A stretch of 63,315 nucleotides of DNA, filler included. It is 7 parts of 7 records of this genome, joined end to end, with 100 filler letters (N's around TTAATTAATTAA, not from the genome) between each part and the next. Parts side by side here need not be neighbours in the genome. Positions count along the whole stretch, not along the records: positions 48,040 to 63,315 come from SRR31156797_35597; 6 more parts are not named here. One strand, 5' to 3'. The stretch's first letter is position 1, and every line of letters starts with the position of its first letter. Under the pieces are notes generated by a model. That model ran no database searches, was not told where the DNA came from, and saw only the letters and a program-made list of their open reading frames with translations. Positions 40,982 through 63,315 of the stretch are shown piece after piece. The translations under genes and the position numbers were made by a program.

Positions 40982-41081
40982 NNNNNNNNNNNNNNNNNNN
41001 NNNNNNNNNNNNNNNNNNNNNNNNNTTAATTAATTAANNNNNNNNNNNNNNNNNNNNNNNNNNNNNNNNNNNNNNNNNNNN
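40982..41081. other. Artificial contig linker
   Basis: N-run with TTAATTAATTAA. Confidence 0.99.
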
Positions 41082-46800: not shown

Positions 46801-47200
46801 TTTTGATGTTGACTGCTTCAAACAATACAATGATAACTATGGTCACCCTAAAGGGGACATTGTATTAAAAGAGATTGGTAAAACTATTAATAGTTTAACA
46901 AAAAGGTCTTCTGATTATGCATTTAGAATTGGTGGTGAAGAGTTTGCAATTATCTTTACTCCACACTTCAAAGAGACAGCTACTGATTTTGCAGCAATTG
47001 TAAGAAAAGAGATTGAGAGTCTACAAATAGAACATAGATTTAACAAAGCAAGTAATTATATAACAGTTTCAATAGGTTTATACAGTGAAAATGGAAATAA
47101 ACTGGAAGATAGTGAATCAATTTATAATCATACTGATGATGCTTTATATGAAGCAAAAGAGAGTGGTAGAAACAAGTTTGTTTTATATGAAAAGAAGTAA
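43832..47200 (+). CDS. Diguanylate cyclase with NMT1/THI5 and two SBP_bac_3 periplasmic domains, PAS and GGDEF
   Basis: LQLKWFHQFQFAGYY, DELTGLYNRR, DVDCFKQYND, RIGGEEF. Confidence 0.92.
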   Translation: MNKIFLSIIILLTAINSFAMQKVTLQLKWFHQFQFAGYYIAKEKGYYKDVGLDVTIKERDLKYNNIKEVINNKAQYGIADSVLFLYKARNEPIITVAPIFQHSANILISRKDRKIQTIEDLNNKKIIFYPNDADGFSLLALLKKFNVDAELIRKREKGDYKKVINKQADLMPAYLTNEPFLFKEAGVEIDIINPMNYGLDIYGDMLFTNKNEALNHPTRVKNFREASLKGWKYALENKEETIQLILEKYNSKKSIEHLRYEAKAIESLISKDLIPLGNMDKGRVQYINNLYIKYGLMDSKLDVNDFIFEEYINSKGIDLSNEEKQYLVDNPTISVLNMEAFAPYNFNISNQAKGYSIEYMKLLANILNIKLEFKTVESWAKSLDMLKEGSLDIIPHIAINEERKKYIDYTDFTHINFSIALAVNKSSDIGTLEDLNGKTLSILDNTFFEEIIREKYPKIKLLTTKTIKEAIDAVSNGTADATIENLSTLEYHINNYWLSNLKTIKLNKDSGLVVNIPMYMGVKKGNKHLKSILEKANAFVKPNEVTKLKSEWLIKNLGEHVDFTKDEYEYLINKKNINYCIDPNWMPLDKIEENKHIGLSSEYIKIFEEKLGVNFNLIKTNSWSNSLESIKNENCELIPFIYRTKERENILNISKPYLSFPLVIATKMKEPFIGDLKTLGKRKVSYVKDYAYKEVLKNSYPLIEFIEVSSINEGLKMVQRNQVYAHIGLLPTIGYQIQKNFSNSLKIAGEVQDEWTLSVATKKDNELLFNIMKKVLTSISEKKKEALFNKYSSVTYEESIDLKKILFIVSFFLVVIVIIIYKNRQINKLNINMKKYIRIIEEHVLTSSTNEKGTITQASKAFCKISGYEKNELIGKNHRLIRHEDMPKELFKELWETISSGKIWKGEIKNKRKDGSFYWVEAKISPIFNNKMEITGYTSIRHDITDKKRVEELSITDELTGLYNRRHFNKVFEDEINRAKRDGHALALMIFDVDCFKQYNDNYGHPKGDIVLKEIGKTINSLTKRSSDYAFRIGGEEFAIIFTPHFKETATDFAAIVRKEIESLQIEHRFNKASNYITVSIGLYSENGNKLEDSESIYNHTDDALYEAKESGRNKFVLYEKK

Positions 47201-47226
47201 AAGGAACTAAGTCCTTTTACTCTTTT
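47190..47226. terminator. Bidirectional terminator between convergent genes
   Basis: gtaaaagga / tccttttac stem with flanking A and T runs. Confidence 0.7.
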
Positions 47227-47938
47227 ATGAGTTTTTTAAATCTTCACACCTATGCTCTTTGATTTTATCAATATAATTAAATACTTTAGTTGTATTCTCT
47301 TCAATATCTCTTGCTACAGAGAATAACTGTTTATCTGTTTTATCTTTTGCATCAATATCAATATATTTTTGAACATTGCTATGAACTTTTTCGTGAGCTA
47401 CAAGGAATTCATCCCAATCTTTGTTGTTAGTATATGACTCATTTGAGTGTTGCTCAATCCACTTACCTAAAGCACACTCTGTATGAGTTTTAACTTTTGC
47501 TGTTTTACCATTTCCAAGCTCTTTAAAGTTTGTCTCTTTAAATGAAATATGGTCAAGTTTTAATTTTGTTGTATCAAATACTAAATCAACATCACATACT
47601 TGGTTTGATTTTGAAGTATCAAATTGTGTTCTACTAATTACTGACATTAAATTTGAAGCTATCTCACTTAAAGTCATTGCTTTTTGAGAAACTATCTCTG
47701 AAGCATTTGCATTCTCTTGTGTTGCTTTATCTAACTGAGTGATTACAGAGTTGATTTGCTCCATTGCTCTTGTTTGCTCATTTGTAGCAGAACTCACTTC
47801 ATTTACATTTGTTGTAACTTGAGAAACTTTTTCATTTAAGTATTTAAAGCTTTCAACCATTTGGTCTGCTGTTTCTTTACCCTCTTTTGTTTTTTCTTGA
47901 GCATAAATTACTAAATCTTTAATCTCTTTTGCAGCTTC
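47225..47938 (-). CDS. Methyl-accepting chemotaxis protein with C-terminal CZB zinc-binding domain, 5' truncated
   Basis: EAAKEIKDLV...EQTRAMEQIN...TQENA; KLDH...ECALGKW...AHEKVH. Confidence 0.9.
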   Translation of the reverse strand, partial: EAAKEIKDLVIYAQEKTKEGKETADQMVESFKYLNEKVSQVTTNVNEVSSATNEQTRAMEQINSVITQLDKATQENANASEIVSQKAMTLSEIASNLMSVISRTQFDTSKSNQVCDVDLVFDTTKLKLDHISFKETNFKELGNGKTAKVKTHTECALGKWIEQHSNESYTNNKDWDEFLVAHEKVHSNVQKYIDIDAKDKTDKQLFSVARDIEENTTKVFNYIDKIKEHRCEDLKNS

Positions 47939-47939
47939 A

Positions 47940-48039
47940 NNNNNNNNNNNNNNNNNNNNNNNNNNNNNNNNNNNNNNNNNNNNTTAATTAATTAANNNNN
48001 NNNNNNNNNNNNNNNNNNNNNNNNNNNNNNNNNNNNNNN
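47940..48039. other. Artificial contig linker
   Basis: N-run with TTAATTAATTAA. Confidence 0.99.
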
Positions 48040-48069
48040 CTGGCTACTGACTACTGGCTACTGGCTACT
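48040..48069. repeat. Heptamer tandem repeat (CTGGCTA)n at contig edge
   Basis: ctggcta ctgacta ctggcta ctggcta ct. Confidence 0.85.
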
Positions 48070-48142
48070 TATACCATTATAACTAATTAATTCTGATAGA
48101 TAGCCCACTTCCAGTGTAGTGTCCCCTTGTTTTAGGATTTCC

Positions 48143-49507
48143 TTACTTTTTACTGACATTACAGGTGTAAAAACCGTTATCAGGAGATATTTTCTTTGCA
48201 ATGTACTGGTAAGATTCTTCCATTACTTTCTTTAACTCTCCTTCAAGACGCCTTTCAACGATGAAGCTATCATGGATACACAGGCATGCTTCCCTCTTGC
48301 TGGTAAAATGTTCCAACACAAGCAAGGCTATCTGCGAATCGATGTTCGTCAGGGTATACCCTTGCGAACTCGCAAAGTATTCCGCAATCGGTTGGTGTGC
48401 CTCCTTGAACATCTCTACCAGCTGTTTGATGGTAGCGTTTGTTCCTTTCAGTATTTGCCAAAGTTCTGGTTCATCATTAAGAATTGTATAATTACCAGCT
48501 CTTACAGCCAGGGTGTAATCAGGGGTATTGAATAGGGCCAACAAAAGTTTTTTCAGGATTGGCCGCAGCCGTTTATCTGAAGTCACCTTAGTATATGGGT
48601 CACCAACATACTGAACCCCTTTCATGCAATACAACAGCGTAGGGTGATACGCGTCGAAATCCAGCTCGACAGTCGCATTGCCATCAATCAGCAATTTTGC
48701 TCTCTCTTCTTGCGGTAAACTCTGGTAGCCGATTGCACCATTATAAAATCGGCCATTATCGTTGAAAGAAGAGTTGTTATACACACGGTGAAGGTCACAG
48801 ATGATGCTGATTTGCTTCTTCCCGTTTGGTAGAGTGACCGTATGTGCACTGTTGCATCGGTTTATAGCCCTTACTTCCTCTTGCAATCGTTTCGCTAATT
48901 TTTTCTTATTGGGCGGAATAGGAATATCTTCTTTCTTTTTATCACCTAATTCTTTATTCTTCCGTAATTTAATCAGCTCACTGCCAAGGGCTGCATCAGC
49001 ATCGCTACGAACAGTAATCTTGTTAAGCAGTTCGAACTTCAGTTTCTTGGAAGGTGCCAGCCGTGTCCACCTTCGCCCGCCCTTTCTCTTAAAATATGTT
49101 CCAGGCAAAAAGTGGCAGTACCCGTTTTCAATCAGCCAGTTAACCACCTTAATGATGAATTGGCTGAGCTTAGGATGATTGATGTAAAAGTTAGAGTTCC
49201 GTGTTACCCGCAAAGGACGTGTATTGGAGGCAAAATATAAGGAGCATATTAGGTTGTAAAACTGTCGCTCTTTATCCTCTTTTTTCAGCACACGTGTCAT
49301 TCCCGCGCTGAAATCCGGTAAAAATTTCTGACTGAAAAAGGCGCGGGCTACCGGCAAAGTATCAGCTGTCGGTACCAAGGTCGTAATTATTTCAAAGGAG
49401 TTCCTGTTCGCATCGTATGGTGATATCTCCTCCTGGCGTTCATACACCATCTGCCAGACACGCTTTTTCATCCGCTCATTTCGGAGCTTGTTACCTATTA
49501 TTGTCAT
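48143..49507 (-). CDS. PolA/T7-RNAP superfamily polymerase-like protein (TV-Pol-like)
   Basis: NGRFY...YQSL...IDGNATVELDFDAYHP (motif A), RPILKKLLLALF (B-like), CLCIHDSFIV (motif C); ATG 49507 preferred. Confidence 0.65.
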   Translation of the reverse strand: MTIIGNKLRNERMKKRVWQMVYERQEEISPYDANRNSFEIITTLVPTADTLPVARAFFSQKFLPDFSAGMTRVLKKEDKERQFYNLICSLYFASNTRPLRVTRNSNFYINHPKLSQFIIKVVNWLIENGYCHFLPGTYFKRKGGRRWTRLAPSKKLKFELLNKITVRSDADAALGSELIKLRKNKELGDKKKEDIPIPPNKKKLAKRLQEEVRAINRCNSAHTVTLPNGKKQISIICDLHRVYNNSSFNDNGRFYNGAIGYQSLPQEERAKLLIDGNATVELDFDAYHPTLLYCMKGVQYVGDPYTKVTSDKRLRPILKKLLLALFNTPDYTLAVRAGNYTILNDEPELWQILKGTNATIKQLVEMFKEAHQPIAEYFASSQGYTLTNIDSQIALLVLEHFTSKREACLCIHDSFIVERRLEGELKKVMEESYQYIAKKISPDNGFYTCNVSKK

Positions 49508-49578
49508 AATAATATAACTATTGGTGATACTAGTGGGTGCCGGACAACTGACAACTCCAACACCCACTAGTTATTGAT

Positions 49579-50673
49579 TTACGGTTTTTCAACTGATGAT
49601 ACCAAGCTCAGCCCACCTGCATCAGCTTCAACAAGTTCCAGTACAACGTCATCACCCTCGCCTGGTTTTAAATCCCTCCCTTTCTCAAAAACGGCCTTCA
49701 GATGTACCTTGTCCACAGCGTCTTTATCGACACGCTTTAAAGCTATAATATTATTAAGATTGCGACGAATACTTGAGTGTCCGCTATCCTTCCCACTTTT
49801 ATTGGCATGGTGTACCAAAATTGTAGCTACCCCCATATTTCGTAGGGTTAAAAGCCACCTGTTTATTTGAGCCCAGTCTTTGTTAATGTTCTCGTTCATG
49901 CCGTCGGCTAAGGACGTTAAATTATCCAAGATAAGAACACGGCATTCGGGCGAATTAACAAAGTGTTCAGTTATGTCCTGGCGGTATCTTTCCGATGTTA
50001 TATTGATTGGCTTTCCTGTTATTTCCTGTACCTCAAGGCTGGAAAGTATGGTCAGTGTATTAACATGGTGTTCTTCGCCCATTGGCTGGGATAATAGTTC
50101 AATACGTTCGTTCAACTCGGGAAGTGGCAACTCGCCGTCAACCAGCAACACGCTACATCCTTGATTAATTTCCCAAGGCCCTATTTTTATCCCTTTGGGA
50201 TTTAACCTTGTCAAACCACAGGCGATAGCGTGGCCTAGCCAGCTTTTCCCAACACCCGGATCGGCATAAAGCATTGTTATGCTACGAGCAATCAGGAACG
50301 GCAGTAGATAGATTACCAATTTTTGGAACTCCATATCCAACAATTCGGTTGCTGTAATGCCGTAGTTGCTGACCAGGTTACCCTCTACCTTTCCTTCTGT
50401 TTTTTTAGATACGTGGTCAACCTTCTGGCCCCCTTTCGGGGGCCGGTGTTCAGGCAATAAGGCCAAATCTTTTAACTTTTTTCGGATATCCCTATTTTTG
50501 CAGCCTGCCTCACAGACTGCGCGAATTTTTCCATTTTGGGTTACCCTTATTAATAATGACAACCCATTATCGTCATGGCAGGGGCATTTGGTTTTATATC
50601 CATCTGGTACCTGCATTTCTTTCCCATGACCTAGTTCATTGGCAAGATGTGTTATTGTAATTTTGTTACCCAT
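49579..50673 (-). CDS. Primase-type zinc finger fused to RecA-like AAA_25 helicase
   Basis: KCPCHDD...CEAGC; ADPGVGKS, VDGE, LILDNL, LVHHANKSG. Confidence 0.8.
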   Translation of the reverse strand: MGNKITITHLANELGHGKEMQVPDGYKTKCPCHDDNGLSLLIRVTQNGKIRAVCEAGCKNRDIRKKLKDLALLPEHRPPKGGQKVDHVSKKTEGKVEGNLVSNYGITATELLDMEFQKLVIYLLPFLIARSITMLYADPGVGKSWLGHAIACGLTRLNPKGIKIGPWEINQGCSVLLVDGELPLPELNERIELLSQPMGEEHHVNTLTILSSLEVQEITGKPINITSERYRQDITEHFVNSPECRVLILDNLTSLADGMNENINKDWAQINRWLLTLRNMGVATILVHHANKSGKDSGHSSIRRNLNNIIALKRVDKDAVDKVHLKAVFEKGRDLKPGEGDDVVLELVEADAGGLSLVSSVEKP

Positions 50674-51847
50674 TGCCCACCTCTTTCACATGATAAAGAA
50701 AATCGTCCGGGCAAATTATTTCTTCTAAATATTTTTCCTCCTCAAATGGACAAAATTTTTCATCGGTAATATTTTTTTGCATATCCTCCTTCACGATGCC
50801 AGGGATGGCTAACAACTGCTCATCGGTAATACAATAGTCGCCATCAACCCATGAATCAGGCTTGATATCCAACAGGCTTAAACTTGAGTTTTTGATCAAG
50901 GCATCGTCGGGCACATTATTATCCCCGCAAACAATTTCATAAGGGGCAATGGCAAGATCGTTGATGACATCACGACTGTTCTTTTTAGGTAACTTTTTCA
51001 GCACACTTGCCTTCTTTTCCGGTTTTTTAGCATCGGTGTGAGTGGTAACGGCTATAGAAGAAACAGGACGTTGTGCCTTGGACACTGAAGTGTTCTGTAC
51101 CTTCTCTGGCCCACTTTTAATCATGTCGATGGCATTGTTAAGTACCTTCATCATGAACTTCCCATGTTCCGTGAACCGATTACCCGAGTTAGGCCCGGCA
51201 ACTTCTCGTTGCTTATGAATAAATTTGTCGAAATCCTTTCGCTTGCGTTCAAGGGAACTAATTACCCTTTTATCAGCAGCTTTTAACTGTTTGCTGATGC
51301 TTACTTCTTTAATTTTTTTAAAGTACTGATCAATGACAATACTGTCAGGTGCAACATCACCGTTTTCGATTGCCACTTTCAGCGACACGACATCTTTGTG
51401 CTTTATGTTGAAACAGCCTACATCTGTGTCTTCCAGTTCTTGCAGGAATTTTTTCGTGAAACACTTTGCCCCCAGTATATATATTACGGACTTTTTCAAA
51501 CCCATCAGCCCAGGATGATCCAGTGTCACACGGTAATAAGTCATCGCATTCTGTGCTGTCCGAGGAGGGATAGAAAGATTATCAGTAACCCACTTTATGA
51601 ACTCACCGCGCTTCTTCAATTGCTTTTTTACTGACACTAAAACCTTGCCCATTCTTCTGGTATAGTCCTCGACCCCTTCGTGTAACAGCCCTACTTCATA
51701 TCTACAATGATTCAGATAAGCGACCAGTTGTTCAAGAGGGACTTTTTCTTTGCCTTCCCACATTACTTCCCTGGTAAACGCCAGCTCTTTCAGTTTTTCT
51801 TCCCTGGCTACCCCTTGTTTGTCATTATCACTATATTCCATTTTCAC
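50666..51847 (-). CDS. DUF3102-like protein
   Basis: MGKVLVSVK...RGEFIKWV...PRTAQNAM. Confidence 0.65.
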   Translation of the reverse strand: MKMEYSDNDKQGVAREEKLKELAFTREVMWEGKEKVPLEQLVAYLNHCRYEVGLLHEGVEDYTRRMGKVLVSVKKQLKKRGEFIKWVTDNLSIPPRTAQNAMTYYRVTLDHPGLMGLKKSVIYILGAKCFTKKFLQELEDTDVGCFNIKHKDVVSLKVAIENGDVAPDSIVIDQYFKKIKEVSISKQLKAADKRVISSLERKRKDFDKFIHKQREVAGPNSGNRFTEHGKFMMKVLNNAIDMIKSGPEKVQNTSVSKAQRPVSSIAVTTHTDAKKPEKKASVLKKLPKKNSRDVINDLAIAPYEIVCGDNNVPDDALIKNSSLSLLDIKPDSWVDGDYCITDEQLLAIPGIVKEDMQKNITDEKFCPFEEEKYLEEIICPDDFLYHVKEVGNG

Positions 51848-52145
51848 TTTCTCCTTTATCTGTCGGGTTACAATGGTCGATAGGCTCGACCGAATCTATC
51901 ACTTTAATTCCGCCAGTAGCCCGTAACCATTTTGACTTATGCTGGTTGAAAACCTCTTCAACCGTCTGTCCATCTTCAGTGGTAACTATCATTTCTCTTT
52001 CGCTTCCTTTAGCGATAAAAAGTTTTCGATAGTGCTGTTTGAGTTCCTTCGCACTAACCTCTTTATTTTTCTTACGGAACTTGCTGAATACAGAGCTCTC
52101 CTTTCTAGCGTAGATGGAGTAGCTGACCTTGTATATCTTCTTCAT
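51831..52145 (-). CDS. Hypothetical protein
   Basis: Coupled ORF in operon, GGAGG RBS. Confidence 0.7.
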   Translation of the reverse strand: MKKIYKVSYSIYARKESSVFSKFRKKNKEVSAKELKQHYRKLFIAKGSEREMIVTTEDGQTVEEVFNQHKSKWLRATGGIKVIDSVEPIDHCNPTDKGESENGI

Positions 52146-52146
52146 C

Positions 52147-52410
52147 CTATTCAGCCCCTCCTTTAATATCCTTGGGCAACTTGACCCTTGACACCTCTTT
52201 AATTTGATACTCCAACAGACACTCTCCTTCTGCCGTGCTGGTCAGATGTTTGTCTATCAGTCCTTCAACTTCATATCGATGGGTACAAACAATTAGCACG
52301 GTTTCTGAGTGCCACCTGTACCTTGGCTTCCATCGTTCTGTTTTAAATTTTTTCTGCCTCCGGTAGCTATATAATACCCACCATACGGATAGACGGTTCT
52401 TGTCCATCAA
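52147..52410 (-). CDS. Hypothetical protein
   Basis: AAGGAG RBS, first gene of the replication operon. Confidence 0.7.
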   Translation of the reverse strand: MMDKNRLSVWWVLYSYRRQKKFKTERWKPRYRWHSETVLIVCTHRYEVEGLIDKHLTSTAEGECLLEYQIKEVSRVKLPKDIKGGAE

Positions 52411-52738
52411 ATTCTCCTTTGCCTAATTAAGGCACTAAAATATATGAGATTACTCATGAACCACCTCGGGGATTAAAAAGGAGAGGCTATTCAAGAGTGG
52501 TAACAATGCAACCTCAGTGTGGTTGCTGACACGTTAGGAAAGGTGCACCGACGAGGGTGCTGAGATGAACTAGGGCCCCAGGGAGCGGGGAAGACGAGAT
52601 CAATCTGGATTGCTTAAAGCGGCCGTCTGCCGGATGAGCGACGAAATCGACCATCCAACTGACTGTATAGTATCATACGAGCACCGATGTTTTCAACTAA
52701 ATTGTGAAGCTTAAACGCTTGTAATCGTGGCAAAAAGC

Positions 52739-52765
52739 TGTAGCCCTTATTTTATAAGGGCTACA
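52739..52765. terminator. Inverted repeat downstream of integrase
   Basis: tgtagcccttat-ttt-ataagggctaca perfect 12-bp stem. Confidence 0.55.
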
Positions 52766-52893
52766 AGGAAATATTTTTTTTCGAGGAAAGGGTAATAATG
52801 ATAACGGGGAGCAAGAGGGCATTGGTTGTAGCTTGAATTCGCCACAGCGCTCTTTCTTTTATAGGTGATATAAGCCTGTTCTGTGTTTCAAGA

Positions 52894-53589
52894 TTAGTTG
52901 CTCCACAGGCACTTGATTTCCTTTTGAACATCTTCCGGTAGTATCGCCGCGTAGATTTCCGTTGTCCGTGAACTCTCATGACCCAATTGTCGTTGAACGA
53001 CCCTGATGTCCCGACACTGGCGGTACAGTTGAACCGCGTAGGAGTGTCGAAGGGAGTGGATGCTCATTGAGATCGTGTACAACCCTAATTTTTTCAGGTA
53101 TTTTTTGACCATCAGCTGGAATGCTTGGCATTTCATCGGACCCCGCTGCCCTTGAAATACATGACTATCATGCTCAACGGATTCTCCTCTGTTAGTCTTC
53201 CACTTCAGGTATCGTTTAATGTGCTGCTTTGTGGTAACCGGTATTTCGACATAACGACTTTTCCGCCCCTTGCCGCATCGAATGAAGATACTACTCTGTC
53301 CGTTCTTGACGAGAAGGTCGCTGCACCTTAAATCTGCAATCTCGGCGACCCGAATACCGGTTGTGGTCAAAAGATCGATAGCCATCCATTCTCTGATGCC
53401 GGTGACATTTTTTCTCATCAATGCAACTTCACCTTTTTCACGCACTGTTCTTCTTAGCGCCTGGATTTCCTCCTTGCGAAAGTACTTCACCGTTTCGCCA
53501 TATCGGACAATTTGCGTTTTCGCATCGTTTTTCTGATTTTGATCTTTGATGGCTGGAGTGAACGGGATAATCTTTGCTGTGTTAGGCAT
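52894..53589 (-). CDS. Tyrosine recombinase/integrase (catalytic domain only)
   Basis: TGIRVAE, GKGRK, HSLRHSY, QLGH, TTEIY. Confidence 0.93.
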   Translation of the reverse strand: MPNTAKIIPFTPAIKDQNQKNDAKTQIVRYGETVKYFRKEEIQALRRTVREKGEVALMRKNVTGIREWMAIDLLTTTGIRVAEIADLRCSDLLVKNGQSSIFIRCGKGRKSRYVEIPVTTKQHIKRYLKWKTNRGESVEHDSHVFQGQRGPMKCQAFQLMVKKYLKKLGLYTISMSIHSLRHSYAVQLYRQCRDIRVVQRQLGHESSRTTEIYAAILPEDVQKEIKCLWSN

Positions 53590-53731
53590 TTTTTGTCCTC
53601 CGGAATTTTCTTTTGAGTTTGAGGGTTTGTTTTGCTACTCCTGAAAACCTATTACTGAACGTTGTAGACTGGCGTAGAAACCGAACTCCAAAGAAAAGGA
53701 GTTATTATATATTGAGTTTGGGAGTCGCCTT

Positions 53732-54544
53732 TCATGATGCCACCTCAGAGTGAATGCTCGTGATTTCCATTCCACGGCTAAATACAATCATTTGTCCTGG
53801 ATTAAATTCTTCCCATTTTTCATCTGAGAGCGGGTTGCTAGCAATGATATAGCCGCTTTCATCACTTCCTTTATGGACATTAAGGTCTACTCCTATGTCG
53901 CTGTCACGGAAACGGCAATTTGAGAAAGGGTACTCACGCTTCACATAATGTAGATCCCGTGCGCCTTTTTTATCCCTGTAGGCGAAGAGCGTAAAACCGT
54001 CCGAAAAAATGCAGTTGAAAGCACCGTGACGGTTGATATCAAAAAGTATCTCATAAATTTTCTCCAAGTTTTCATCTGAGAAATACTGTAGCCCACCTCT
54101 TCTTCTAGGAATGATGTCTTTCTTTTCCATTTCGCCAAGAAGCGTACAGAATGCTTGCTCGGAGTCGGTGTTCCCGATTACTTGATAATTGATGTTCAAG
54201 GGAGTGCGGGTTGCCAAAGTCCCGTTGTGTGCAAAAATCATCTCTGTTCCGCAATAGTGACGAAAAAATGGGTGAGTATTTTCATAGGACACCATTCCAC
54301 GGCTGGCGCGTCGGACATGAAGGATGAAAGTTTCGGATTTCAGAAGATGAGAATGTTGAAGAAATGCAGCTAACTCACTTTCATTGCCAGGCTTTGGCTC
54401 TTTGAATACGACAGCTCCTTTACCATCAGGATGATAACCAATTCCCCATCCGTCTGGATTCCAGTCACAGCCTGACAAAAGGGATGGAAAGCTAAATTTG
54501 GGCTGGATCGGCTTGTTGAAATTTAAGGCAAGAAGCTCACACAT
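53732..54544 (-). CDS. Class II glutamine amidotransferase (YafJ/EgtC-like)
   Basis: MCELL N-terminal Cys, DGWG, HVRRAS, NTHPF, AHNG, TDSE. Confidence 0.9.
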   Translation of the reverse strand: MCELLALNFNKPIQPKFSFPSLLSGCDWNPDGWGIGYHPDGKGAVVFKEPKPGNESELAAFLQHSHLLKSETFILHVRRASRGMVSYENTHPFFRHYCGTEMIFAHNGTLATRTPLNINYQVIGNTDSEQAFCTLLGEMEKKDIIPRRRGGLQYFSDENLEKIYEILFDINRHGAFNCIFSDGFTLFAYRDKKGARDLHYVKREYPFSNCRFRDSDIGVDLNVHKGSDESGYIIASNPLSDEKWEEFNPGQMIVFSRGMEITSIHSEVAS

Positions 54545-55318
54545 AATTTTACTCCTTTCTGAACTTTTGGCGTAGGAATGCACTGTCGCGAATTTCGTGA
54601 TTTTTATTGTGTTCAGTATTTTGGTTTTGAATGGTTATGTAGAAAGGTGCAATTGAGCAATTCTCAAACAGTTAATCTTTTACTCAACTGCTTAATTTTA
54701 TTAGGATTAACGAAGACAATCAACCTTTAACACGTGATTTCATAAGGTTGAGTTAAATTTTGAAGGGATTTAAAAATTTCGGTGGGAGCACTTTTATACA
54801 ACAAACCTGAAAAGCTATTTTTCACTGTTTTTACTACAGCCAGTAGTCAGCACTGTAAACCTACTCCCAACAGTTTTTTTCGTTGTTGAGTTTTACAGGA
54901 CAGCCGTGTGTTTCAGCTCAGCGAACCCAGCAGTTTCTCCCTTTAAAAAATATGCTGAAGATGAATGCTAGTGAAGGGGTAAAAATATAAGAAGGGGGTA
55001 AATCTATGTGGTTGAAAAAAGGCTTACACGCCGACTTCAGCATATAAGGATGAGAAGTATTGGCTTCACAGCTGAGGTCTTGATGCCCTACGCTGATCTG
55101 ATGATGACAAGTTAATTTGCTGGATATCTTGTCTTACTCCCATTCGGCAAAAATGTTCGTTTCGGCAAATTTGCCAGTTCGGTGGCAGCGAATTCCTTCA
55201 ATAAAAATTGTGGCCACCAAAAAAATCGCGAATCAGGGGAGGTATTTGAATGACTGCCCTTCAGAAATTGAACCTGATAACGTTGCACTTCTGCTGTTAT
55301 GACTTTTTGGTACTGTGC

Positions 55319-55696
55319 TCAGAAAGATTTTAGGGGGAAACAACCAGAAGGCACCAAGGTTCCACTATTGTCCTCATTGAAATATATCCATGCCATAACA
55401 GTAATGGACTGAAAGGAATTATTATCCGGGCAAATTTCAACCTGCTCACGTTGGTACCAATGGGGATGTCCTTCGAGTTGATCCAGCTCGTAAAGGGTTT
55501 GGTCGTCAACTTCGTATAGTTCTCCATGGATTTGTGATACTGGTTCACTGACGATCACAAAAGGAATGCCACTGACATACATGGCGTACTTCTCTCTTGT
55601 CTTACCAGTCCCAAGGAATTTACTGTCAGCAAGAAACCTGTGGTTGCCATAACCACGCTTGAGCGTACCGTATACAAATATATTATGTGATTTCAT
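55319..55696 (-). CDS. Gamma-glutamylcyclotransferase family protein
   Basis: FVYGTLKRG, GELY, LDQLEG, AWIY. Confidence 0.9.
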   Translation of the reverse strand: MKSHNIFVYGTLKRGYGNHRFLADSKFLGTGKTREKYAMYVSGIPFVIVSEPVSQIHGELYEVDDQTLYELDQLEGHPHWYQREQVEICPDNNSFQSITVMAWIYFNEDNSGTLVPSGCFPLKSF

Positions 55697-55771
55697 ATTA
55701 TTACGTGAATTGGAAAATTATTCTGGAACGTAAAGTTTTCTTGTTTCCAGGTTCCAGGACAGGGAGTAAAA

Positions 55772-55969
55772 TTACACCACATCCACATATTCCATTATCA
55801 AGGCCAGAACATCGTCATACCTGCCACCAGAATTCTGCAACGCTTCTAATGCGGTATCAAAATTTAAAAGTTCTTGTATCAGCCCTTCTTTCTTTAACGT
55901 GTTTCTGACTATAGCTATCAGGTTGAAGACATTCCCGTTTTCTCCAATGAGCTTGCATGTTGGTTTCAT
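55772..55969 (-). CDS. Small MGE-associated hypothetical protein
   Basis: LIGENGNVFNLI...YDDVLALIMEYV, a pattern recurrent in phage/ICE proteins. Confidence 0.7.
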   Translation of the reverse strand: MKPTCKLIGENGNVFNLIAIVRNTLKKEGLIQELLNFDTALEALQNSGGRYDDVLALIMEYVDVV

Positions 55970-56298
55970 GACTGCTCACCACGGAATCTGATTTTCGGTA
56001 TCACTGAAACAGGTGTTGGCGGCCAATGCTCTTCCAACTCACAGTCTATTTCTATGCCGCCAGCACAGATTTCTTTCAGCTCAGTGAATGAAATATAGCC
56101 CCATTCGGCATTTTCCATATCACCGTTCAAAATCGCATATCCGAAAAATATATCTTCACCATCGTACTCTGCAACAAACCAGTCGCTACCGCCTATAAAG
56201 AAATGCAGGTGGATAATTTTGTCTTTGATCGGGATTGATTCTGTTTCGTAAAGGCGGGGTATACTGGCAAGGCGTTCTTTGCTGGGTTCGTTCCACAT
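55966..56298 (-). CDS. DUF2958-like protein
   Basis: PRLYETE, HFF...WFVAEYD...FFG...EWGYISFTEL; GAGGTG RBS before ATG 56298. Confidence 0.75.
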   Translation of the reverse strand: MWNEPSKERLASIPRLYETESIPIKDKIIHLHFFIGGSDWFVAEYDGEDIFFGYAILNGDMENAEWGYISFTELKEICAGGIEIDCELEEHWPPTPVSVIPKIRFRGEQS

Positions 56299-56819
56299 AG
56301 TGCACCTCATGCTGTTTAATAAATGAGGTTTTCAACGATAACATCCAAACGAGTGGAGTTAAACCAGGAACAGTTTTTCGTTGTTGCAACAGCGGAGACC
56401 TAGCGAAGACGCTTATTCTGTCGAAGGTGTACCCTCTTTATCGGACTTGATCAGAATAGCGGCAGATCGCGATTCTTAGGGAAATGCGAAAACTTTTCGG
56501 TTAAGTAAATTTTTCCGAATTCAACATAGGAGCAATCGGCAAGGTAGAAAAGTAGCGTTTATGTAAAATTCAGGAATTTCTTTGAATAATATTCTTGCCT
56601 GGAGTACAAACTTAACTACATGAAATTATTCTACTAACATTTACGTCACGATGTGACACCATTTACTTATGCTCAAAATTGGCGGTGGCTGTGTGGTATG
56701 GTCAAGAGTAAATGAAAATATGTTTAGTACATTGGAAAAACATACCCCTGATTCAGGTGTACATGAGGATACTATGAGTATTGAAAATGTTAGATATTTA
56801 ATAATTAGAGGAGATATGA

Positions 56820-58052
56820 ATGCTTGATCAAGCTTTCTCTCCATCTCGTTTGTTACGACTTGTTAAGCCTGAAGATGTAGCGAGATTTAGGCTATGGCGA
56901 CCCGGCGACGATCAAGATGCTATTATGGGTGACATTTCCTCTGAAATCAATGACCCAGAATTTTCCTTTCCAGATTTTAAGGAAAAAATTATGAGGGGGA
57001 AAACAATCTACTCGGCACCTGACGCTGTTTCGATACTTGCCTTACGTAAACTTGATAGAAACATTCGAGCGATTTACAAGGTTAAGCAGGCTAATCGTGA
57101 CGCTATGGTTCATCAGGTGAAGTCGCTATTACAAGAAGGCTGTTCGTTTACTGTCCTTCGCCTCGATATTAAATCCTTTTATGAATCAATAGACTGTAGA
57201 AAGTTGTTGAATAAAATTTCTCGAGATTCAATAGTCTCCTATACATCGAGAACCATTTTCAAGAAACTTTTTGCATCTAATCAATTTGACACCCTTTCTG
57301 GTCTACCTCGTGGGTTTGGCGTGAGTGCAACGCTAGCAGAGTTATATGTGCGAAGTCTTGATCGCCAGATCCAGGAACTCAAACATGTCTATTTTTACGG
57401 AAGGTATGTTGATGATATGGTTATCTTTACCCATGCTCCAGGTGAAGAGGTTATTGAGAAGATAAAAGATATTCTAAGTAGCTTAGGATTAGAACTTAAT
57501 CCTGAAAAAAAGGACATTATCGAGTGTAGTAGCAAAAAGAATCTCCACGATGAAAGTTGTGAATGTTTCGATTTTTTGGGTTATCGTTTCGAATGTAAGA
57601 AGTTTTTAATTAAAGAAGATGAATGGCGAGAGGTTACTGTTGGTATAGCTACTTCTAAACTGAAGAAAATTAAGTCACGCATTGCACACTCTTTTATTAA
57701 TTATTCAACAGCACCTGACTTCCCGTTACTTCTAAAAAGATTAAGGTTTCTCACCGATAGTCACACCCTCCGCAAGGGACCAAATGGTGGGCTTAAGGGG
57801 GGGATTTATTACAACTATAATCATATTGATAATGAAAAGGATTTAATTGAACTTGATAGTTTTCTTCGTCGATTAATTTTCTGTAAGAAAGGTTCGATTG
57901 GTAAGAGGTTAGCCCCCCAACTAAATGCTATACAAAGGCGAGAGCTGATTAAGCTCAGTTTTGTTGCTGCATTCAAAGGACGTTTTTCCAGAGGACGCCT
58001 CTGGGGTTCAATGAAAGAAATACGAACTGGCTGGATCTATGAGAAAAATTAG
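56820..58052 (+). CDS. drt3a: Antiviral reverse transcriptase Drt3a (UG3 class)
   Basis: VKQANRD, RLDIKSFYESI, GLPRG, GRYVDD, FDFLGY; 14-nt overlap with second RT. Confidence 0.9.
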   Translation: MLDQAFSPSRLLRLVKPEDVARFRLWRPGDDQDAIMGDISSEINDPEFSFPDFKEKIMRGKTIYSAPDAVSILALRKLDRNIRAIYKVKQANRDAMVHQVKSLLQEGCSFTVLRLDIKSFYESIDCRKLLNKISRDSIVSYTSRTIFKKLFASNQFDTLSGLPRGFGVSATLAELYVRSLDRQIQELKHVYFYGRYVDDMVIFTHAPGEEVIEKIKDILSSLGLELNPEKKDIIECSSKKNLHDESCECFDFLGYRFECKKFLIKEDEWREVTVGIATSKLKKIKSRIAHSFINYSTAPDFPLLLKRLRFLTDSHTLRKGPNGGLKGGIYYNYNHIDNEKDLIELDSFLRRLIFCKKGSIGKRLAPQLNAIQRRELIKLSFVAAFKGRFSRGRLWGSMKEIRTGWIYEKN

Positions 58053-59973
58053 AATCGACAAGTCTGACAAGTACCGCGTTCTTCTTACTGATGTACTTCC
58101 TTATGAAACACCGATGTTTTTTTCAAATGAAGGCTTCTACAGATTTTCAAAAAATAAGCTAGCGGACGCTGCGCCAATTGTTCGACAAATCCTTACCACA
58201 TTTGAAGATAGTCAAAAAAAGAAAATTTCTAAAATTGCCACCACTCCATACAGTTATGGGATCAGGAAAGGTACTTTAGGCGTACGCACGTTGAGCTTGT
58301 TTCACCCTGCAGTACAATTACAGATCGTTGATTTTTACGATAAATTTTCACATGTTATCCTAAATCTCTGCAAGCGGAGTCGATTCTCGCTTCGATATCC
58401 TGCTGCAATTGCATCAGCTGTTTATGGCAAAGAAGATGAAGCTATTGATGAGGTGAAACATGGAGCAACTTTTTTTAAGTATGAAAAGTATGATTTCCTC
58501 TATCGTTTTTACGAATCTTATGAACTGCAACGTCTAGAGAAGAGATTTCGACATTTAAGATTGTTTGATATTTCTAAATGCTTTGACCATATTTACACGC
58601 ACACTTTGTCTTGGGCTGTTCGGAGTAAAGACTTTGCGAAAGGAAATCTAGGGAGAAAAACTATTGATGGGGAATTCGATGCAATTATGCAAGCGGCGAA
58701 CCACAAAGAAACCGCCGGAATTCTGATTGGATCGGAGGTGTCTAGAATTTTTGCGGAAATCATTTTACAGAAGGTTGATCTTTCTGTCGAAAGCAGGTTG
58801 TCTAGCAAGCTAAATCGTGGGATGGATTATGATATTCGCCGATATGTTGATGACTACTATGTATTTTCTAGAACAAAAGAGATCGGTGAAACGGTCATGC
58901 GGATATATCTTGAGGAGCTAAAGATATACCGCCTCTTTTTTAATGAATCGAAATCTGTTGTCATGGTTGTACCATTTATGACGACTATCTCCTGTGCAAA
59001 AGTTGAGCTTGGTAACATCCTCAGCATTTTTTTTGAATCGTTAATAACTAAGAGTCAGGTCATTGATGGCACAGACAAAACGATAACAACATTACTGAAA
59101 ATTCGAAGTCCTAACAAGAAGGCTAGTCGGCTAATCCAGCAAATAAAATCTATTATAAAATCGCATGGAGTAGAGTTCACCAGTGTCTCCGGGTTTATAT
59201 TTTCAGTACTTGAAAAAAGGTTGAAAGATATTGTTAATAGTATCGACAAAGATAATACCAGTGACCTTGAGTTAGGAAATTTTTTATATGTCTTACTCGA
59301 TATCATATTTTTTATATACGCAATGGATGTTCGAGTATCTATAACCTATAAGGTTGGGCGCACCGCCATTAAAGCGTGTAAAACAGTTCATGGGCGCTCT
59401 GATGAAATAAATGAATTGATCAAAAAGAAGATTTACGATGAATCTCGGCGGATATTAGAATCTGAAACCTTGGGGCAACCTGAATTTTATGTAGAAACAG
59501 TCAACCTTTTAGCTGTTATTAGAATGTTGGGACCAGAATATCATGTTAGTCCAGAAATCATTGACAAGATGATAAAGGCAATGGATCGTGATAGGACCGA
59601 TGATGATTCTTCTGGGATTGACTATTTTCTCGTTGTGGCAATCCTTTTTCACATTGGAGATAATGTAGAATATTCATTTCAGAAAAAAATATTACTTCAA
59701 AAAACTATTGAGAAATTTGAAAAAGAAGAGAGACATTCTCACCGAGCCGATTTTACCTGCCTACTTTTTGATTTGCTCAGTTGTCCATTTTTAGATAATA
59801 AAATCAAAAAGAAATTGACGAGAGCCTTTAAGATTAATGATAGATTGTTGTCGGATAAAGAGAGAGGGTGTATAATGGCCGATGTTCCAAATCATCAATG
59901 GTTTACTGATTGGCACGCAAGAGATAACATTGAGGTCTTATTGCTCAAAAAAAAATACCAAGCACCATATTGA
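58039..59973 (+). CDS. drt3b: Antiviral reverse transcriptase Drt3b (UG8 class)
   Basis: LLTDVLPYETPMFFSN, DISKCFDHIYTH, GILIGSEVSRIFAE, RRYVDDY; helical C-terminal extension. Confidence 0.92.
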   Translation: MRKIRIDKSDKYRVLLTDVLPYETPMFFSNEGFYRFSKNKLADAAPIVRQILTTFEDSQKKKISKIATTPYSYGIRKGTLGVRTLSLFHPAVQLQIVDFYDKFSHVILNLCKRSRFSLRYPAAIASAVYGKEDEAIDEVKHGATFFKYEKYDFLYRFYESYELQRLEKRFRHLRLFDISKCFDHIYTHTLSWAVRSKDFAKGNLGRKTIDGEFDAIMQAANHKETAGILIGSEVSRIFAEIILQKVDLSVESRLSSKLNRGMDYDIRRYVDDYYVFSRTKEIGETVMRIYLEELKIYRLFFNESKSVVMVVPFMTTISCAKVELGNILSIFFESLITKSQVIDGTDKTITTLLKIRSPNKKASRLIQQIKSIIKSHGVEFTSVSGFIFSVLEKRLKDIVNSIDKDNTSDLELGNFLYVLLDIIFFIYAMDVRVSITYKVGRTAIKACKTVHGRSDEINELIKKKIYDESRRILESETLGQPEFYVETVNLLAVIRMLGPEYHVSPEIIDKMIKAMDRDRTDDDSSGIDYFLVVAILFHIGDNVEYSFQKKILLQKTIEKFEKEERHSHRADFTCLLFDLLSCPFLDNKIKKKLTRAFKINDRLLSDKERGCIMADVPNHQWFTDWHARDNIEVLLLKKKYQAPY

Positions 59974-59975
59974 GT

Positions 59976-60182
59976 TTGGGGATGGCACAGAAGGGGAAGG
60001 TTCGCGACGGTCAGTATTGTTTTTTGGTACTGACTCAATTACAGTTCTGATACAGATGTATTTTGACGTATCATGACCTGAGTCCAATTCGGTTTTTGTG
60101 TATGTTCATAAGTGGCGACTGAAGGCATACTCATGAGGCGGACACACACAATGTACTCGGACCCTGATGTGCTAATCCCCAA
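59976..60182 (+). ncRNA. DRT3-associated structured ncRNA with ACACACACA tract
   Basis: Closing helix ttggggat-ggcaca / tgtgct-a-atccccaa; internal stems; ACACACACA at 60142-60150; immediately after drt3b stop. Confidence 0.82.
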
Positions 60183-60254
60183 TTAACAAGCTATTGAATA
60201 TTTCTATCCGATTAAACACTACCTATATCTCTCCCGTGAATAGCACCTTTTTAT

Positions 60255-62207
60255 TTACATAATCATTTCTCGCCAACCTTCAAAGATCATAACCATCGCA
60301 AAAGTATCAAGTTCACAATAACGCAAGAGCGCACCGACAAGCTCATTTCTTTCAACAGTAGTCATCTCACTGAATTGCATTCTCCCATAGGCAGCCAGTG
60401 CGGCCCCGCCGTCAGCAAGTTTCTCGTCTTCAGTCAGTATCTGATAGTTTTTTTCGCTGACATCCTTGAACATTTTTGGAAGTTTTTTATAAGGGTCGAG
60501 CACCTCCCCGTTATTTATTTCCAGCCATTGCCAATCATGGAAATTAAAACTTTTAATGCCCCCCTCTGCCCCATAAATCGGTTTGGAGTATTTCTCTTGC
60601 AAATAGGTACTGGATTTTAAAATGGCTGGTAGCACATGTTTAATGGAATTAGATCCATGCGTCTTTGGGTCGTAGTAAAAACGTTTCACTAGATCCCACA
60701 TATCAACCATTTTTCGTTCGCCTTCCCAATATTCGTGAGCGGTACGAGTAGAGGTGCTGATCGACTTTATAAAATCACAGAGTTCTTCCCTATCTTGTAT
60801 GAATATTTCATCAGCTTGTAACTGTCTATAAATATGATTCAAGTATGTATTTTCATGTGGCGAGTAACAGAAAATAGTTCCATTATCATTTTCTAATTCA
60901 CACTTCAAGGCTCTCAGAAAATCATAATTAGGGAATTCTCCAGCACAGCTGTTCAAGTATTCACCGCTATGTTCTACTTTGCCATCTTCATACACTGTAT
61001 GATGAGAGAACTGAAAGGCTATTGGTTCATATGGTCGACGGCCTTTATTAAAAGGTATGGCGACCATGCTAGTCTCAAAATCGATGAAATGCAGAGGGTA
61101 TGTCCATCGACACATTTCCCTATTCATCCCAATATTATCAAAGTAAGGCGTTGGGTCGTTTAGTTGAACTTTCTCAACCTGCAACCACCTTCTTTCTTTT
61201 GCTGAAATACCAGGATTTCCATCGCCTTCCGGGTTAAAATCCTTATAGGTTAGATCCGAAAATTTTAATTTCCCCTCTTTGATTAGCTTGTCTTTTCTCC
61301 TTTCTTGCCAAATTTCCAAAATATTCGGTTCATCAAAATCAATATCTTCCCACAAGAGGCTTTGTTTCCAGCATTCCTTGAAACCATTTTTAAACCCCAT
61401 GGCCTCTTCATCTTTTGAACATCTGAACTCACATTTTCCACATTTGGAGCCGATAGACGGGAAAATCTTGATGTTTCTCTCATAGTGCTCGGCAAAATGT
61501 TCAATTTGGGCAGGAAAAGTTTCATCCTTCATGATTAGATCTATGCATTCGTCAACTGGGACTTTAACTAGAATCCAGTCACTTAGATCTTCATCGTTTA
61601 ATGAGGTCGAGACTTTAATCCCTTTGCGATTATTCTGATCACGCACAATTCTAAATTTCTGATTAAGCCCATCAACGGGGCATCTGGCATTTTTGTCTGC
61701 CAACATGAGAAAACTTGAGATATCTGCGTTGGGCAATCTGCCACTGAGTACATATCGCTGAAAAGCTACATCATCAAGATATGGTTGCCAGTTGCTCCTT
61801 ATAGCTCCACCATTTGTGAGGAAAGGGGCATCAGCCTCGCTATCAACAGACTTGGCCTTAACTTCAATAAGTTCAAAATGGTTTCCATCTTTTACAAGCA
61901 CATCAACGCGAATAAAAAGGTTACCAAACCTTATTGCTGGCTCATAGATGATTACCTTTTCTCGTTGCAACAGTTTATTGGTTTGTTGCTCAGCTTCTGC
62001 ATAATCAAGGCTAGTAATATCATAGCCCCCTGGGTGATAATATTTGGCTAACTCACCAACCTGGAAACCACCTTCGGCTAAAGCGGCAAGAAATGAATCA
62101 TCAAGTTTTGTATCAGGATATTCTTTTTTATTGGTGTAAAAAAGTTTGGTGGGGCATTCTCTTGCGAGTTTGAAACGTGATTTAGTTAGGAAAGGAGGTT
62201 TGGGCAT
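60255..62207 (-). CDS. DUF2779 protein (PD-(D/E)XK/Cas4-like nuclease plus RNase H-like domain)
   Basis: LTKSRF...ECP, VDVL...IEVKAK, CGKCEFRC, FIDFET, FQFSHH, YCELDT. Confidence 0.82.
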   Translation of the reverse strand: MPKPPFLTKSRFKLARECPTKLFYTNKKEYPDTKLDDSFLAALAEGGFQVGELAKYYHPGGYDITSLDYAEAEQQTNKLLQREKVIIYEPAIRFGNLFIRVDVLVKDGNHFELIEVKAKSVDSEADAPFLTNGGAIRSNWQPYLDDVAFQRYVLSGRLPNADISSFLMLADKNARCPVDGLNQKFRIVRDQNNRKGIKVSTSLNDEDLSDWILVKVPVDECIDLIMKDETFPAQIEHFAEHYERNIKIFPSIGSKCGKCEFRCSKDEEAMGFKNGFKECWKQSLLWEDIDFDEPNILEIWQERRKDKLIKEGKLKFSDLTYKDFNPEGDGNPGISAKERRWLQVEKVQLNDPTPYFDNIGMNREMCRWTYPLHFIDFETSMVAIPFNKGRRPYEPIAFQFSHHTVYEDGKVEHSGEYLNSCAGEFPNYDFLRALKCELENDNGTIFCYSPHENTYLNHIYRQLQADEIFIQDREELCDFIKSISTSTRTAHEYWEGERKMVDMWDLVKRFYYDPKTHGSNSIKHVLPAILKSSTYLQEKYSKPIYGAEGGIKSFNFHDWQWLEINNGEVLDPYKKLPKMFKDVSEKNYQILTEDEKLADGGAALAAYGRMQFSEMTTVERNELVGALLRYCELDTFAMVMIFEGWREMIM

Positions 62208-62208
62208 A

Positions 62209-62844
62209 TTAATTTTCGCTTGGCCAAAAATAATTGGTTTTTCCGCAAGGAGTTACGATTCTTTCGTTCTCGCTTGTCGCCAAAGTGTGAAGGTCTAATG
62301 TCCACTGCCTTTTAATCCCCATTAAAAGTGCATAGGCAGATATCACGGCATCCCACTCATGGTCATTTTCTGTGTTTACCTCGAGGCCTAATTGTTTGGA
62401 TAAATAACTGTCCATCCTTATATTATTACGCTCGTAATCATATTTCTCTTTAGTTAAAGCGAAGTATAATACTTTAGGGTGTGTTTCAGACAAAACGACA
62501 GTCTTAATTTTTTTTGAAATTTCAATCAACACAGACATGCCATTAAGGCCCATAGAGCCGGATAATGTATTCGGTGACATAATACTATTTATAACTTCAC
62601 GATATTTACTCCGTAGCCATAGATCTGCAGGTCTCCACCCACTATCACCGCTACTCCAGCATGAAAGTGTATCAACACCAAGGCCAACAAGGTTAGAATA
62701 ATTTGATATCTCACGAATCACCGATTCAGCATTTTTCAATGTCAGTATTTCAACCTTGCAGGGGACAAAGTTATTAACTTCTATGATTGCCAAGCCATTC
62801 TTACAATTTCCGCCAGGGTCATACCCTGCAATAATGCCATTCAT
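62209..62844 (-). CDS. DUF429 RNase H-fold predicted nuclease
   Basis: GYDPGG, GVD, ETHPK, DHEWDAVISA. Confidence 0.78.
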   Translation of the reverse strand: MNGIIAGYDPGGNCKNGLAIIEVNNFVPCKVEILTLKNAESVIREISNYSNLVGLGVDTLSCWSSGDSGWRPADLWLRSKYREVINSIMSPNTLSGSMGLNGMSVLIEISKKIKTVVLSETHPKVLYFALTKEKYDYERNNIRMDSYLSKQLGLEVNTENDHEWDAVISAYALLMGIKRQWTLDLHTLATSENERIVTPCGKTNYFWPSEN

Positions 62845-62899
62845 TACCTCTTCACCCTTTTGGCTTTTAATTCACAAAAGATAATTTTTAATGTGCTCT

Positions 62900-63065
62900 T
62901 CAGATAATAACTTTTAGTATGAAATATTCAAGCAATACCCCATCCACAATCCACGGCCCTTTTACACCAGGCAGTTTATAACCTAGGATATTTTGCGCAA
63001 CCCAGCGTGCTGCAGTCGCAGTGAGATACAGTATGTCCAATTTATAAGCGAATTTGTTTTCAGGT
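62900..63065 (-). pseudogene. Degenerate duplicate of the adjacent HTH gene
   Basis: QIRL*IGHTVSH [frameshift] ATAARWVAQNILGYKLPGVKGPWIVD aligns to the intact copy 250 bp away. Confidence 0.7.
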
Positions 63066-63140
63066 TTAATGCTGCAAATCAGCAAATTTTTCGTTTACGA
63101 AAAAATATCTAATATGAGCGAAGAAACAAACAGATTTCGC

Positions 63141-63314
63141 TTATAGGCTTCTTGGTACAATGGTATTCAAGTAACTCTGAAACAACACCTTGTCCACAAT
63201 CCATTGACCCCTATGCCCAGGTAGCTTATGTCCAAGATTGTTTTGGGCAACCCAGCGTGCTGCTGTCGAATGAGAAACTGTACGCCCAGTTTGTAACAGA
63301 ATTTGTTGCTGAGC
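63141..63314 (-). CDS. Small excisionase/MerR-like HTH protein, 5' truncated (missed by ORF track)
   Basis: Own translation AQQQILLQTGRTVSHSTAARWVAQNNLGHKLPGHRGQWIVDKVLFQSYLNTIVPRSL*. Confidence 0.6.
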   Translation of the reverse strand, partial: AQQQILLQTGRTVSHSTAARWVAQNNLGHKLPGHRGQWIVDKVLFQSYLNTIVPRSL

Positions 63315-63315
63315 G

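Follow-up and report, generated by a model that had tools for sequence, protein, structure and literature searches.

Do two overlapping reverse transcriptase (RT) genes and the structured non-coding region behind them form a complete DRT3 anti-phage system, and would it work as the characterised one does? The question is raised by a 63,315-nucleotide (nt) stretch of joined contigs from a sulfate-reducer bin (hereafter the window). Judged by homology, its positions 56820-60182 very probably hold a complete and apparently functional DRT3 cassette, consisting of drt3a, drt3b plus a non-coding RNA (ncRNA) and expected to work like the DRT3 system of Escherichia coli. The cassette is not a new kind of system; it is a divergent copy of characterised DRT3 with its own version of the RNA.

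DRT type 3 was reportedly described as a defence system by Gao et al. in 2020. It is among the most unusual polymerase systems known, in that protein side chains specify one DNA strand, and only for the E. coli system has the mechanism been elucidated so far. An undamaged copy which is at most 41% identical to Drt3b outside its own sub-clade, and which keeps all priming and gating residues together with ACACAC, is a natural test of the generality of this mechanism, and a second, very different ncRNA makes it possible to learn which RNA features matter. Otherwise the locus is an ordinary annotation: an accessory contig of a sulfate-reducer bin carries a defence system that is already known.

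Identification of Drt3a and Drt3b

The gene drt3a (UG3, a class 2 RT) occupies 56820..58052 on the plus strand and encodes 410 amino acids (aa); drt3b (UG8, a class 1 RT) occupies 58039..59973 on the same strand and encodes 644 aa. The two genes overlap by 14 nt and contain no internal stop, and each product carries a YVDD motif, at residues 196-199 of Drt3a (57405-57416, plus strand) and residues 269-272 of Drt3b (58843-58854, plus strand). The first-pass annotation of this DNA, made from the letters alone, had described two intact overlapping RT genes of these lengths with YVDD in each, and its coordinates proved exact.

Both proteins were identified by matches in NCBIfam, PADLOC and PDB. 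Drt3a scored 390 bits against the NCBIfam equivalog NF041747 (cut-off 200), its residues 1-405 aligning with positions 1-412 of the 412-position model, and Drt3b scored 604 bits against the equivalog NF041748 (cut-off 350) with positions 1-647 of 647 covered. In PADLOC, the Drt3a family was matched with 407 bits (E 2.7e-122), followed by RT_UG17 as the next class with 126 bits, and the Drt3b family with 648 bits (E 6.6e-195), followed by Drt6 (134 bits), Drt4 (120 bits) and AbiK (73 bits). Pfam returned only the generic RVT_1 domain. Searches of PDB chains with HMMER aligned Drt3a with the E. coli Drt3a chain 9z6y_A (E 2.8e-50 over residues 1-405), and Drt3b with 26cz_A, a SUMO-fused RNA-directed DNA polymerase (E 1.6e-103), as well as with the Drt3b chain 9z6y_H (E 1.3e-85); the matches of Drt3b also include 7r08 and DRT4-like chains.

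One explanation of the locus is that the two proteins are RTs of a different type (a retron, group II intron, Abi or other UG class) and that the ACACAC tract found downstream of them is coincidental. Like any RT, both give weaker matches to many RT models, and by estimate roughly 7% of 281-nt stretches would contain ACACAC by chance. However, the retron, group II intron and Abi models stay far under their cut-offs (group II intron 89 and 43 bits against 300, retron St85 49 against 235, AbiA 31 against 250) and AbiK reaches 73 bits against 648 for Drt3b; the gap to the next class is about 280 bits for Drt3a and about 510 bits for Drt3b, both equivalog models are covered in full length, and ACACAC is enriched across the family, as described below. 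The explanation is already refuted by the model scores, the PDB matches and this enrichment, and we leave it next to no probability. The assignment of the pair to UG3 and UG8 in the first-pass annotation is thus borne out by curated models that place both proteins far above every other RT class, and the outcome that it had named as refuting, a grouping of the RTs with the retron, group II intron or Abi classes, does not arise.

Functional residues of Drt3b

In E. coli, according to Wang, Yoneyama et al. 2026 (PMC13174585), the downstream ncRNA has a 5'-ACACAC-3' loop that Drt3a copies into poly(dTdG), and Drt3b needs no nucleic-acid template to synthesise poly(dCdA), for which it primes on Y666; A and C are gated by E22 and R241 of Drt3b, helped by R71, and the active sites of both RTs are needed for defence. 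The mechanism given in the first-pass annotation, with Drt3a copying an AC repeat and Drt3b working untemplated, agrees with this account.

With 775 residues, the chain 26cz_A exceeds E. coli Drt3b (667 residues) by 108, and the query aligns with it from chain position 110 onwards; therefore, the E. coli numbering was taken as the chain position minus 108. In this alignment, E. coli E22, R71, D182, F187, R241, the YVDD motif and Y666 correspond to E23, R83, D177, F182, R236, Y269-D272 and Y644 of the window protein. Codons were checked on the plus strand for E23 (58105-58107), R83 (58285-58287), R236 (58744-58746) and Y644 (59968-59970), the last of which is the very last residue of the protein. 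Across 24 diverse Drt3b proteins (alignment A1), R83, D177, F182, R236, Y269, D271 and D272 are invariant, and E23, V270 and Y644 are kept in at least 90%. On the evidence of these alignments, every published catalytic, priming and gating residue of Drt3b is present.

The template tract across DRT3 loci

The putative template tract of Drt3a, ACACACAC, is located at 60142..60149 on the plus strand, 168 nt past the drt3b stop. For comparison, 104 related loci were gathered from genome contigs (the best 80), metagenome contigs (22) and viral contigs (2); 15 of them were dropped owing to a drt3b frame below 600 aa, a frame leaving the locus or less than 300 nt downstream, and 89 complete loci were kept. 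Of these 89, 83 carry ACACAC in the 300 nt that follow drt3b, at offsets of 28-240 (median 125), a range that includes the window tract at +168. As controls, GTGTGT occurred in the same downstream stretches of 3/89 loci, and ACACAC in a 300-nt slice inside drt3b of 10/89. Counting the 83 loci and the window together, the tract is 6 nt long in 62/84 and 8 nt long in 22/84, the window belonging to the latter.

The window RNA also holds a UGUGU element complementary to the template (60097..60101, plus strand). A template-complementary GUGU element was considered as a possible feature of the family and was rejected, since it is depleted across the family: when up to 150 nt before each template were counted in the 83 related loci and the window, TGTGT or GTGTG was present in 7/84 (the window among the seven) against 16.9 +/- 3.5 in shuffles, and GTGT in 24/84 against 33.9 +/- 4.1. 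The depletion is consistent with selection keeping the ACACAC template free. Because UGUGU is not conserved in locus L081, a close relative described below, and template-complementary 5-mers are depleted family-wide, the UGUGU of the window is read as a quirk of a single copy and not as a feature.

Predicted fold and conservation of the ncRNA

The DRT3 ncRNA is predicted to span about 207 nt at 59976..60182 on the plus strand, its ends being approximate and taken from the closing stem. The slice 59974-60190 has a minimum free energy (MFE) of -70.0 kcal/mol (z -3.33), and none of 200 dinucleotide shuffles was as stable; the wider intergenic region 59974-60254 gave a z of -1.33, which is not significant. 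The fold signal therefore belongs to the ~207 nt inside the closing stem. In the predicted fold, this stem consists of 8+6+4 base pairs (59976-59983/60175-60182, 59984-59989/60168-60173 and 59992-59995/60162-60165, plus strand). A structured non-coding region behind the RT genes had been proposed in the first-pass annotation, and the stem ends precisely at 60182, where that annotation had put its end.

Inside the closing stem, the fold contains a first stem-loop with an 11-bp hairpin (60009..60035) and a second hairpin (60044-60077), both on the plus strand; at the place aligned with the first, L081 also forms a hairpin, but with another sequence. The single-stranded block AATTACAG (60037..60044) and the block CTGAGTC (60078..60084), also on the plus strand, are invariant in the window, L081 and L117, a decayed copy discussed below. 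In the window fold, the first six bases of CTGAGTC pair with 60155-60160, just 3' of the template. When the template is forced to be single-stranded (-67.8 kcal/mol against -70.0 unconstrained), an imperfect stem-loop at 60089..60141 (plus strand) abuts the template by its 3' strand, and this is the putative counterpart of "stem-loop 4" in the E. coli RNA.

The closing-stem layout is a trait of the DRT3 family. At least five pairs between the 30 nt after the template and sequence more than 50 nt upstream were predicted in 75/84 loci, against 39.5 expected after shuffling of the 30-nt post-template tail; the window has 23 such long-range pairs, and L025, an E. coli-type locus, folds into the same layout as the window RNA. 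A first test of the architecture was too noisy; it gave a local hairpin within 3 nt of the template in 53/84, and in 35/84 the 5' end formed a duplex with the 3' end at p<=0.05.

L081 is the only complete close relative found, with a Drt3b 53% and a Drt3a 50% identical to those of the window. Its RNA region folds at z -3.80 and shares with the window AATTACAG, CTGAGTC and the 13-mer ACACACACAATGT, and the segment from CTGAGTC to the template measures 57 nt in both. AATTACAG and CTGAGTC occur in 0 of the other 82 template-bearing loci. When the closing stems of window and L081 were aligned by hand, a comparison of two sequences only, 6 of 11 pairs were unchanged, 2 had changed on one side, 3 had changed on both sides and 0 were broken; the stem thus shows compensatory changes between the two. 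Sequencing run X2 yielded only a near-identical 243-nt contig with one difference, which holds no covariation information.

Several observations speak against a working DRT3 RNA at this place. The unconstrained MFE structure pairs the template with UGUGU and leaves 1/6 template bases unpaired, and the unpaired probabilities of the template are 0.1-0.7; freeing it costs only 2.2 kcal/mol. A scan of 55500-61000 with Rfam 15 (E up to 1) gave no match, and blastn of the ncRNA against loci L001-L123, L081 included, gave nothing at E 1e-3. Promoter- and terminator-like sites numbered 12 and 2, no more than in shuffles. Finally, CTGAGTC in L081 pairs partly with bases just 5' of its template, and the pairing of the window is impossible there. 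Since the partner of CTGAGTC thus differs between window and L081, the fine structure near the template is only predicted, and since there is neither an Rfam family nor a blastn match, the case for homology of the RNA is built on its position and spacing, on short blocks in common and on covariation between two sequences. The 509-nt spacer upstream of the cassette likewise gave nothing in blastn against L001-L123 at E 1e-3, and the window RNA is not alignable to the seed alignment of another sub-clade, several rows of which lack the 5' strand. As the first-pass annotation had claimed, all three parts are kept, namely both RTs and a predicted ncRNA with its template downstream.

Proposed mode of action

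In E. coli DRT3, as the same article (PMC13174585) describes it, the two strands form double-stranded DNA (dsDNA), which is limited by RecBCD, and abortive infection is set off by Gam, a phage inhibitor of RecBCD. The phages sensitive to the E. coli system were T5 and lambda-vir. Nothing at the locus contradicts the published DRT3 mechanism. In the window system, Drt3a would bind the RNA from 59976-60182 and repeatedly copy ACACAC(AC) at 60142-60149 into poly(dTdG); Drt3b would extend poly(dCdA) from the hydroxyl of Y644 without a nucleic-acid template, and E23 and R236 would force A and C to alternate. Poly(dTdG) and poly(dCdA) would then anneal into GT/AC duplex DNA, which host machinery of the RecBCD type would normally limit; inhibition of this machinery by a phage would let the duplex accumulate and abort the infection. 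Analogy with the E. coli system is our ground for inferring that the RNA is transcribed, where it ends, which DNA is made, what sets the system off and that it defends this host.

Position in the Drt3b family

A protein search with Drt3b found 680 database proteins at E <=0.001, and the identities that follow refer to the best 120 of these. The top Drt3b matches are 85, 72, 60, 59, 60 and 56% identical, all of them metagenomic; shorter relatives (P0009-P0014) are 51-59% identical, including a protein of a Methyloprofundus metagenome-assembled genome (MAG) at 52%, and all remaining Drt3b are at most 41% identical. A FastTree phylogeny was built from 119 sequences, namely the listed proteins of 600-700 aa together with P0009 and P0012, the other listed proteins being left out, with RT frames of other classes from L115 and L116 as the outgroup. 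The window and eight relatives fell into one clade with a support of 0.99 and a stem of 0.32; P0015 is the sister of this clade, which is nested inside the diversity of Drt3b.

Members of the clade were scarce among assembled loci. The best 80 loci from genome contigs are all at most 40% identical and include 0 clade members; among the 22 loci from metagenome contigs, only L081 exceeds 45% over the full length; the 2 loci from viral contigs are 34% and 31% identical; 7 plasmid records are all at most 31% identical, none of them in the clade, and phages gave none. In an order sample around genome G402, Drt3b was present in 2/401 genomes, both at most 37% identical, one of the two being the genome at the search centre. 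Judged by these sequences, the cassette belongs to a rare, small and divergent sub-clade, known almost only from metagenomes, whose members share 52-85% identity. The word "divergent" in the first-pass annotation is therefore apt, given a sub-clade with 0.99 support and at most 41% identity to other Drt3b.

Such a position raises the possibility that the RTs are a genuine DRT3 pair with the same products, and that the ribonucleoprotein (RNP), the regulation or the trigger of the sub-clade differs from those of E. coli. The long, well-supported stem and the low identity to the rest of the family point in this direction, as do the longer RNA, the two sequence blocks confined to the sub-clade and the presence in the window of a UGUGU-type element that is otherwise depleted. 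On the other hand, the catalytic, priming and gating residues, the template and the closing-stem layout are all kept, UGUGU is not shared by L081, and an RNA sequence specific to a clade is the rule in this family: no more than 32 unique RNAs were reached by the covariance model that Wang, Yoneyama et al. 2026 (PMC13174585) used. We consider such a difference improbable, and a cassette working like that of E. coli remains the preferred reading.

A related and more specific proposal, which we regard as speculative and rather unlikely, is that the sub-clade may define a distinct DRT3 RNA subtype, whose RNP is assembled or regulated unlike the 6:6:6 complex of E. coli. The subtype might be marked by the length of ~207 nt, by AATTACAG and CTGAGTC, and by an 8-nt template preceded by a stem-loop module with a constant length of 57 nt; in the window copy, the template-complementary UGUGU could gate access to the template.

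A decayed copy and the integrity of the window genes

L117 (G149:C1:1148500-1155300) is a decayed copy of the same sub-clade and the sole copy in a 401-genome order sample around genome G001. An IS66-family transposase gene lies upstream of its drt3a frame, which is cut to 213 aa; another transposase of the IS66 family splits its drt3b, and its RNA is cut before the template. The decay of L117 by IS66 insertions shows what an inactive copy in this clade looks like; the window genes are uninterrupted.

This comparison bears on the suggestion that the genes of the window are intact and the system is nevertheless silent or crippled, a recently acquired passenger whose RNA is unmade, whose template is sequestered or whose host factor is missing. 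The accessory contig with its mobile-element genes, the rarity of Drt3b in the order sample around G402 and the pairing of the template in the MFE structure would fit it. Against this, no stop, frameshift or insertion is found in 3.4 kb, the functional residues are all kept, and inactive copies gather obvious damage, as seen in L117. A silent system is accordingly very improbable, and an apparently functional cassette is retained as the explanation.

Genomic context and host

The window consists of 7 contigs joined by N44-TTAATTAATTAA-N44 linkers and is not continuous DNA. The six linkers (10883-10982, 20452-20551, 27055-27154, 33511-33610, 40982-41081 and 47940-48039) cut genes: DnaE stops at model position 785/1146, and the following PilT begins at model position 68. 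Distance or synteny across linkers is meaningless. The DRT3 cassette lies on the last contig of the window (48040-63315, 15,276 nt), which coincides with a single Logan contig of sequencing run X1, possibly the source of this DNA, and since the window is made of joined contigs, the term "flanking genes" covers only this contig. It has 10 other non-nested open reading frames (ORFs) of 100 aa or more, all of them on the minus strand, so the orientation of the cassette opposite to its flanking genes, noted at first pass, holds within the contig. The G+C content is 0.375 for the cassette and 0.424 and 0.396 for the remainder of its contig.

On the minus strand of the contig are located a phrog_4756 protein (48143-49567, 474 aa), an AAA_25 primase/helicase-like gene (49579-50673, 364 aa), a short tyrosine integrase (52894-53589, 231 aa) and, within 48143-53589, two ORFs of 393 and 104 aa which have no assignment. 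This module (48143-53589), which is 3 kb away from the cassette, resembles a piece of a small integrative element or satellite. Between the integrase and DRT3, 53732-55696 on the minus strand holds the genes for GATase_4 (class II glutamine amidotransferase) and GGACT (gamma-glutamyl cyclotransferase-like). The GATase_4 gene was found in 0/161 genomes of a Desulfobacteraceae family sample and is therefore accessory too. Next to it lies a 114-aa ORF (55966-56310, core 56074-56301, minus strand) with a weak DUF2958 match below cut-off; about 200 nt of this ORF have a match in 14/161 family genomes at 67-75% nucleotide identity, sometimes twice per genome, a recurrence as expected for a mobile-element gene.

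Downstream, and convergent with DRT3, 60255-62844 on the minus strand encodes a 650-aa DUF2779 protein and then a 211-aa protein with a weak DUF429-like match. The pair had no PADLOC match; the two may be unrelated nucleases or a defence neighbour not yet described. Besides DRT3, the contig showed no known defence system, and 47000-63315 contained no att-like direct repeats that would bound an island. At the contig end, an 89-nt direct repeat is present at 62930-63018 and 63180-63268 (73% identity, 250 nt apart).

That the cassette is accessory and probably horizontally acquired is supported, and its location on a defined mobile element is plausible. The first-pass annotation had called it mobile-element-borne; an integrase and a primase/helicase-like gene do lie 3-7 kb away on the same contig, but no ends of an element were found. 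It had also called the system probably deltaproteobacterial. The bin is assigned to Desulfobacteraceae because its DnaE, the gene cut by a linker on another contig, is 97% identical to that of a Desulfobacteraceae MAG and 84% to that of Desulforapulum autotrophicum. The tie of the DRT3 contig to this bin rests on binning, so the host assignment is only indirectly supported.

On a different contig of the window, 6752-8789 on the plus strand holds an MCM-like fragment (251 aa) followed by an AAA ATPase. The matches of the ATPase include the anti-phage IteA model, at 133 bits far under its cut-off of 510, which is probably ordinary AAA similarity.

Comparison with known systems

DRT10 (UG17) is the second-best PADLOC family for Drt3a (126 bits). 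According to PMC12632851, it comprises a class 2 UG RT and an ncRNA, and makes tandem-repeat DNA in a telomerase-like manner by copying a short RNA template again and again. Unlike the window system, DRT10 has a single RT with a SLATT effector and no Drt3b partner, and the score of Drt3a for its own family is about 280 bits above that for UG17. DRT4, DRT6 and AbiK, the next-best families for Drt3b, resemble it as tyrosine-primed, template-independent polymerases with a helical repeat domain. They differ in acting alone and giving random or other products, whereas Drt3b is paired with Drt3a, and the product of E. coli Drt3b is strictly alternating CA.

The closest characterised system is the E. 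coli DRT3, on which a further study, Deng et al. 2026 (Science), is cited in the review PMC13314766; the PDB entries are 9z6y and 9z6z. The window proteins are only distantly similar to those of E. coli, the listed E. coli Drt3b (P0095) being 36% identical; the window RNA is longer, cannot be aligned by sequence and carries blocks of its own clade; the template has 8 nt and not 6; Y644 is the very last residue; and the host bin is Desulfobacteraceae. The two systems share the order drt3a-drt3b-ncRNA on one strand, full-length protein matches and YVDD in both RTs; E22, R71, R241 and Y666 of E. coli Drt3b all have equivalents in the window; and both RNAs have ACACAC near the 3' end and a long-range closing stem, with a stem-loop before the template that in the window RNA is predicted when the template is held single-stranded.

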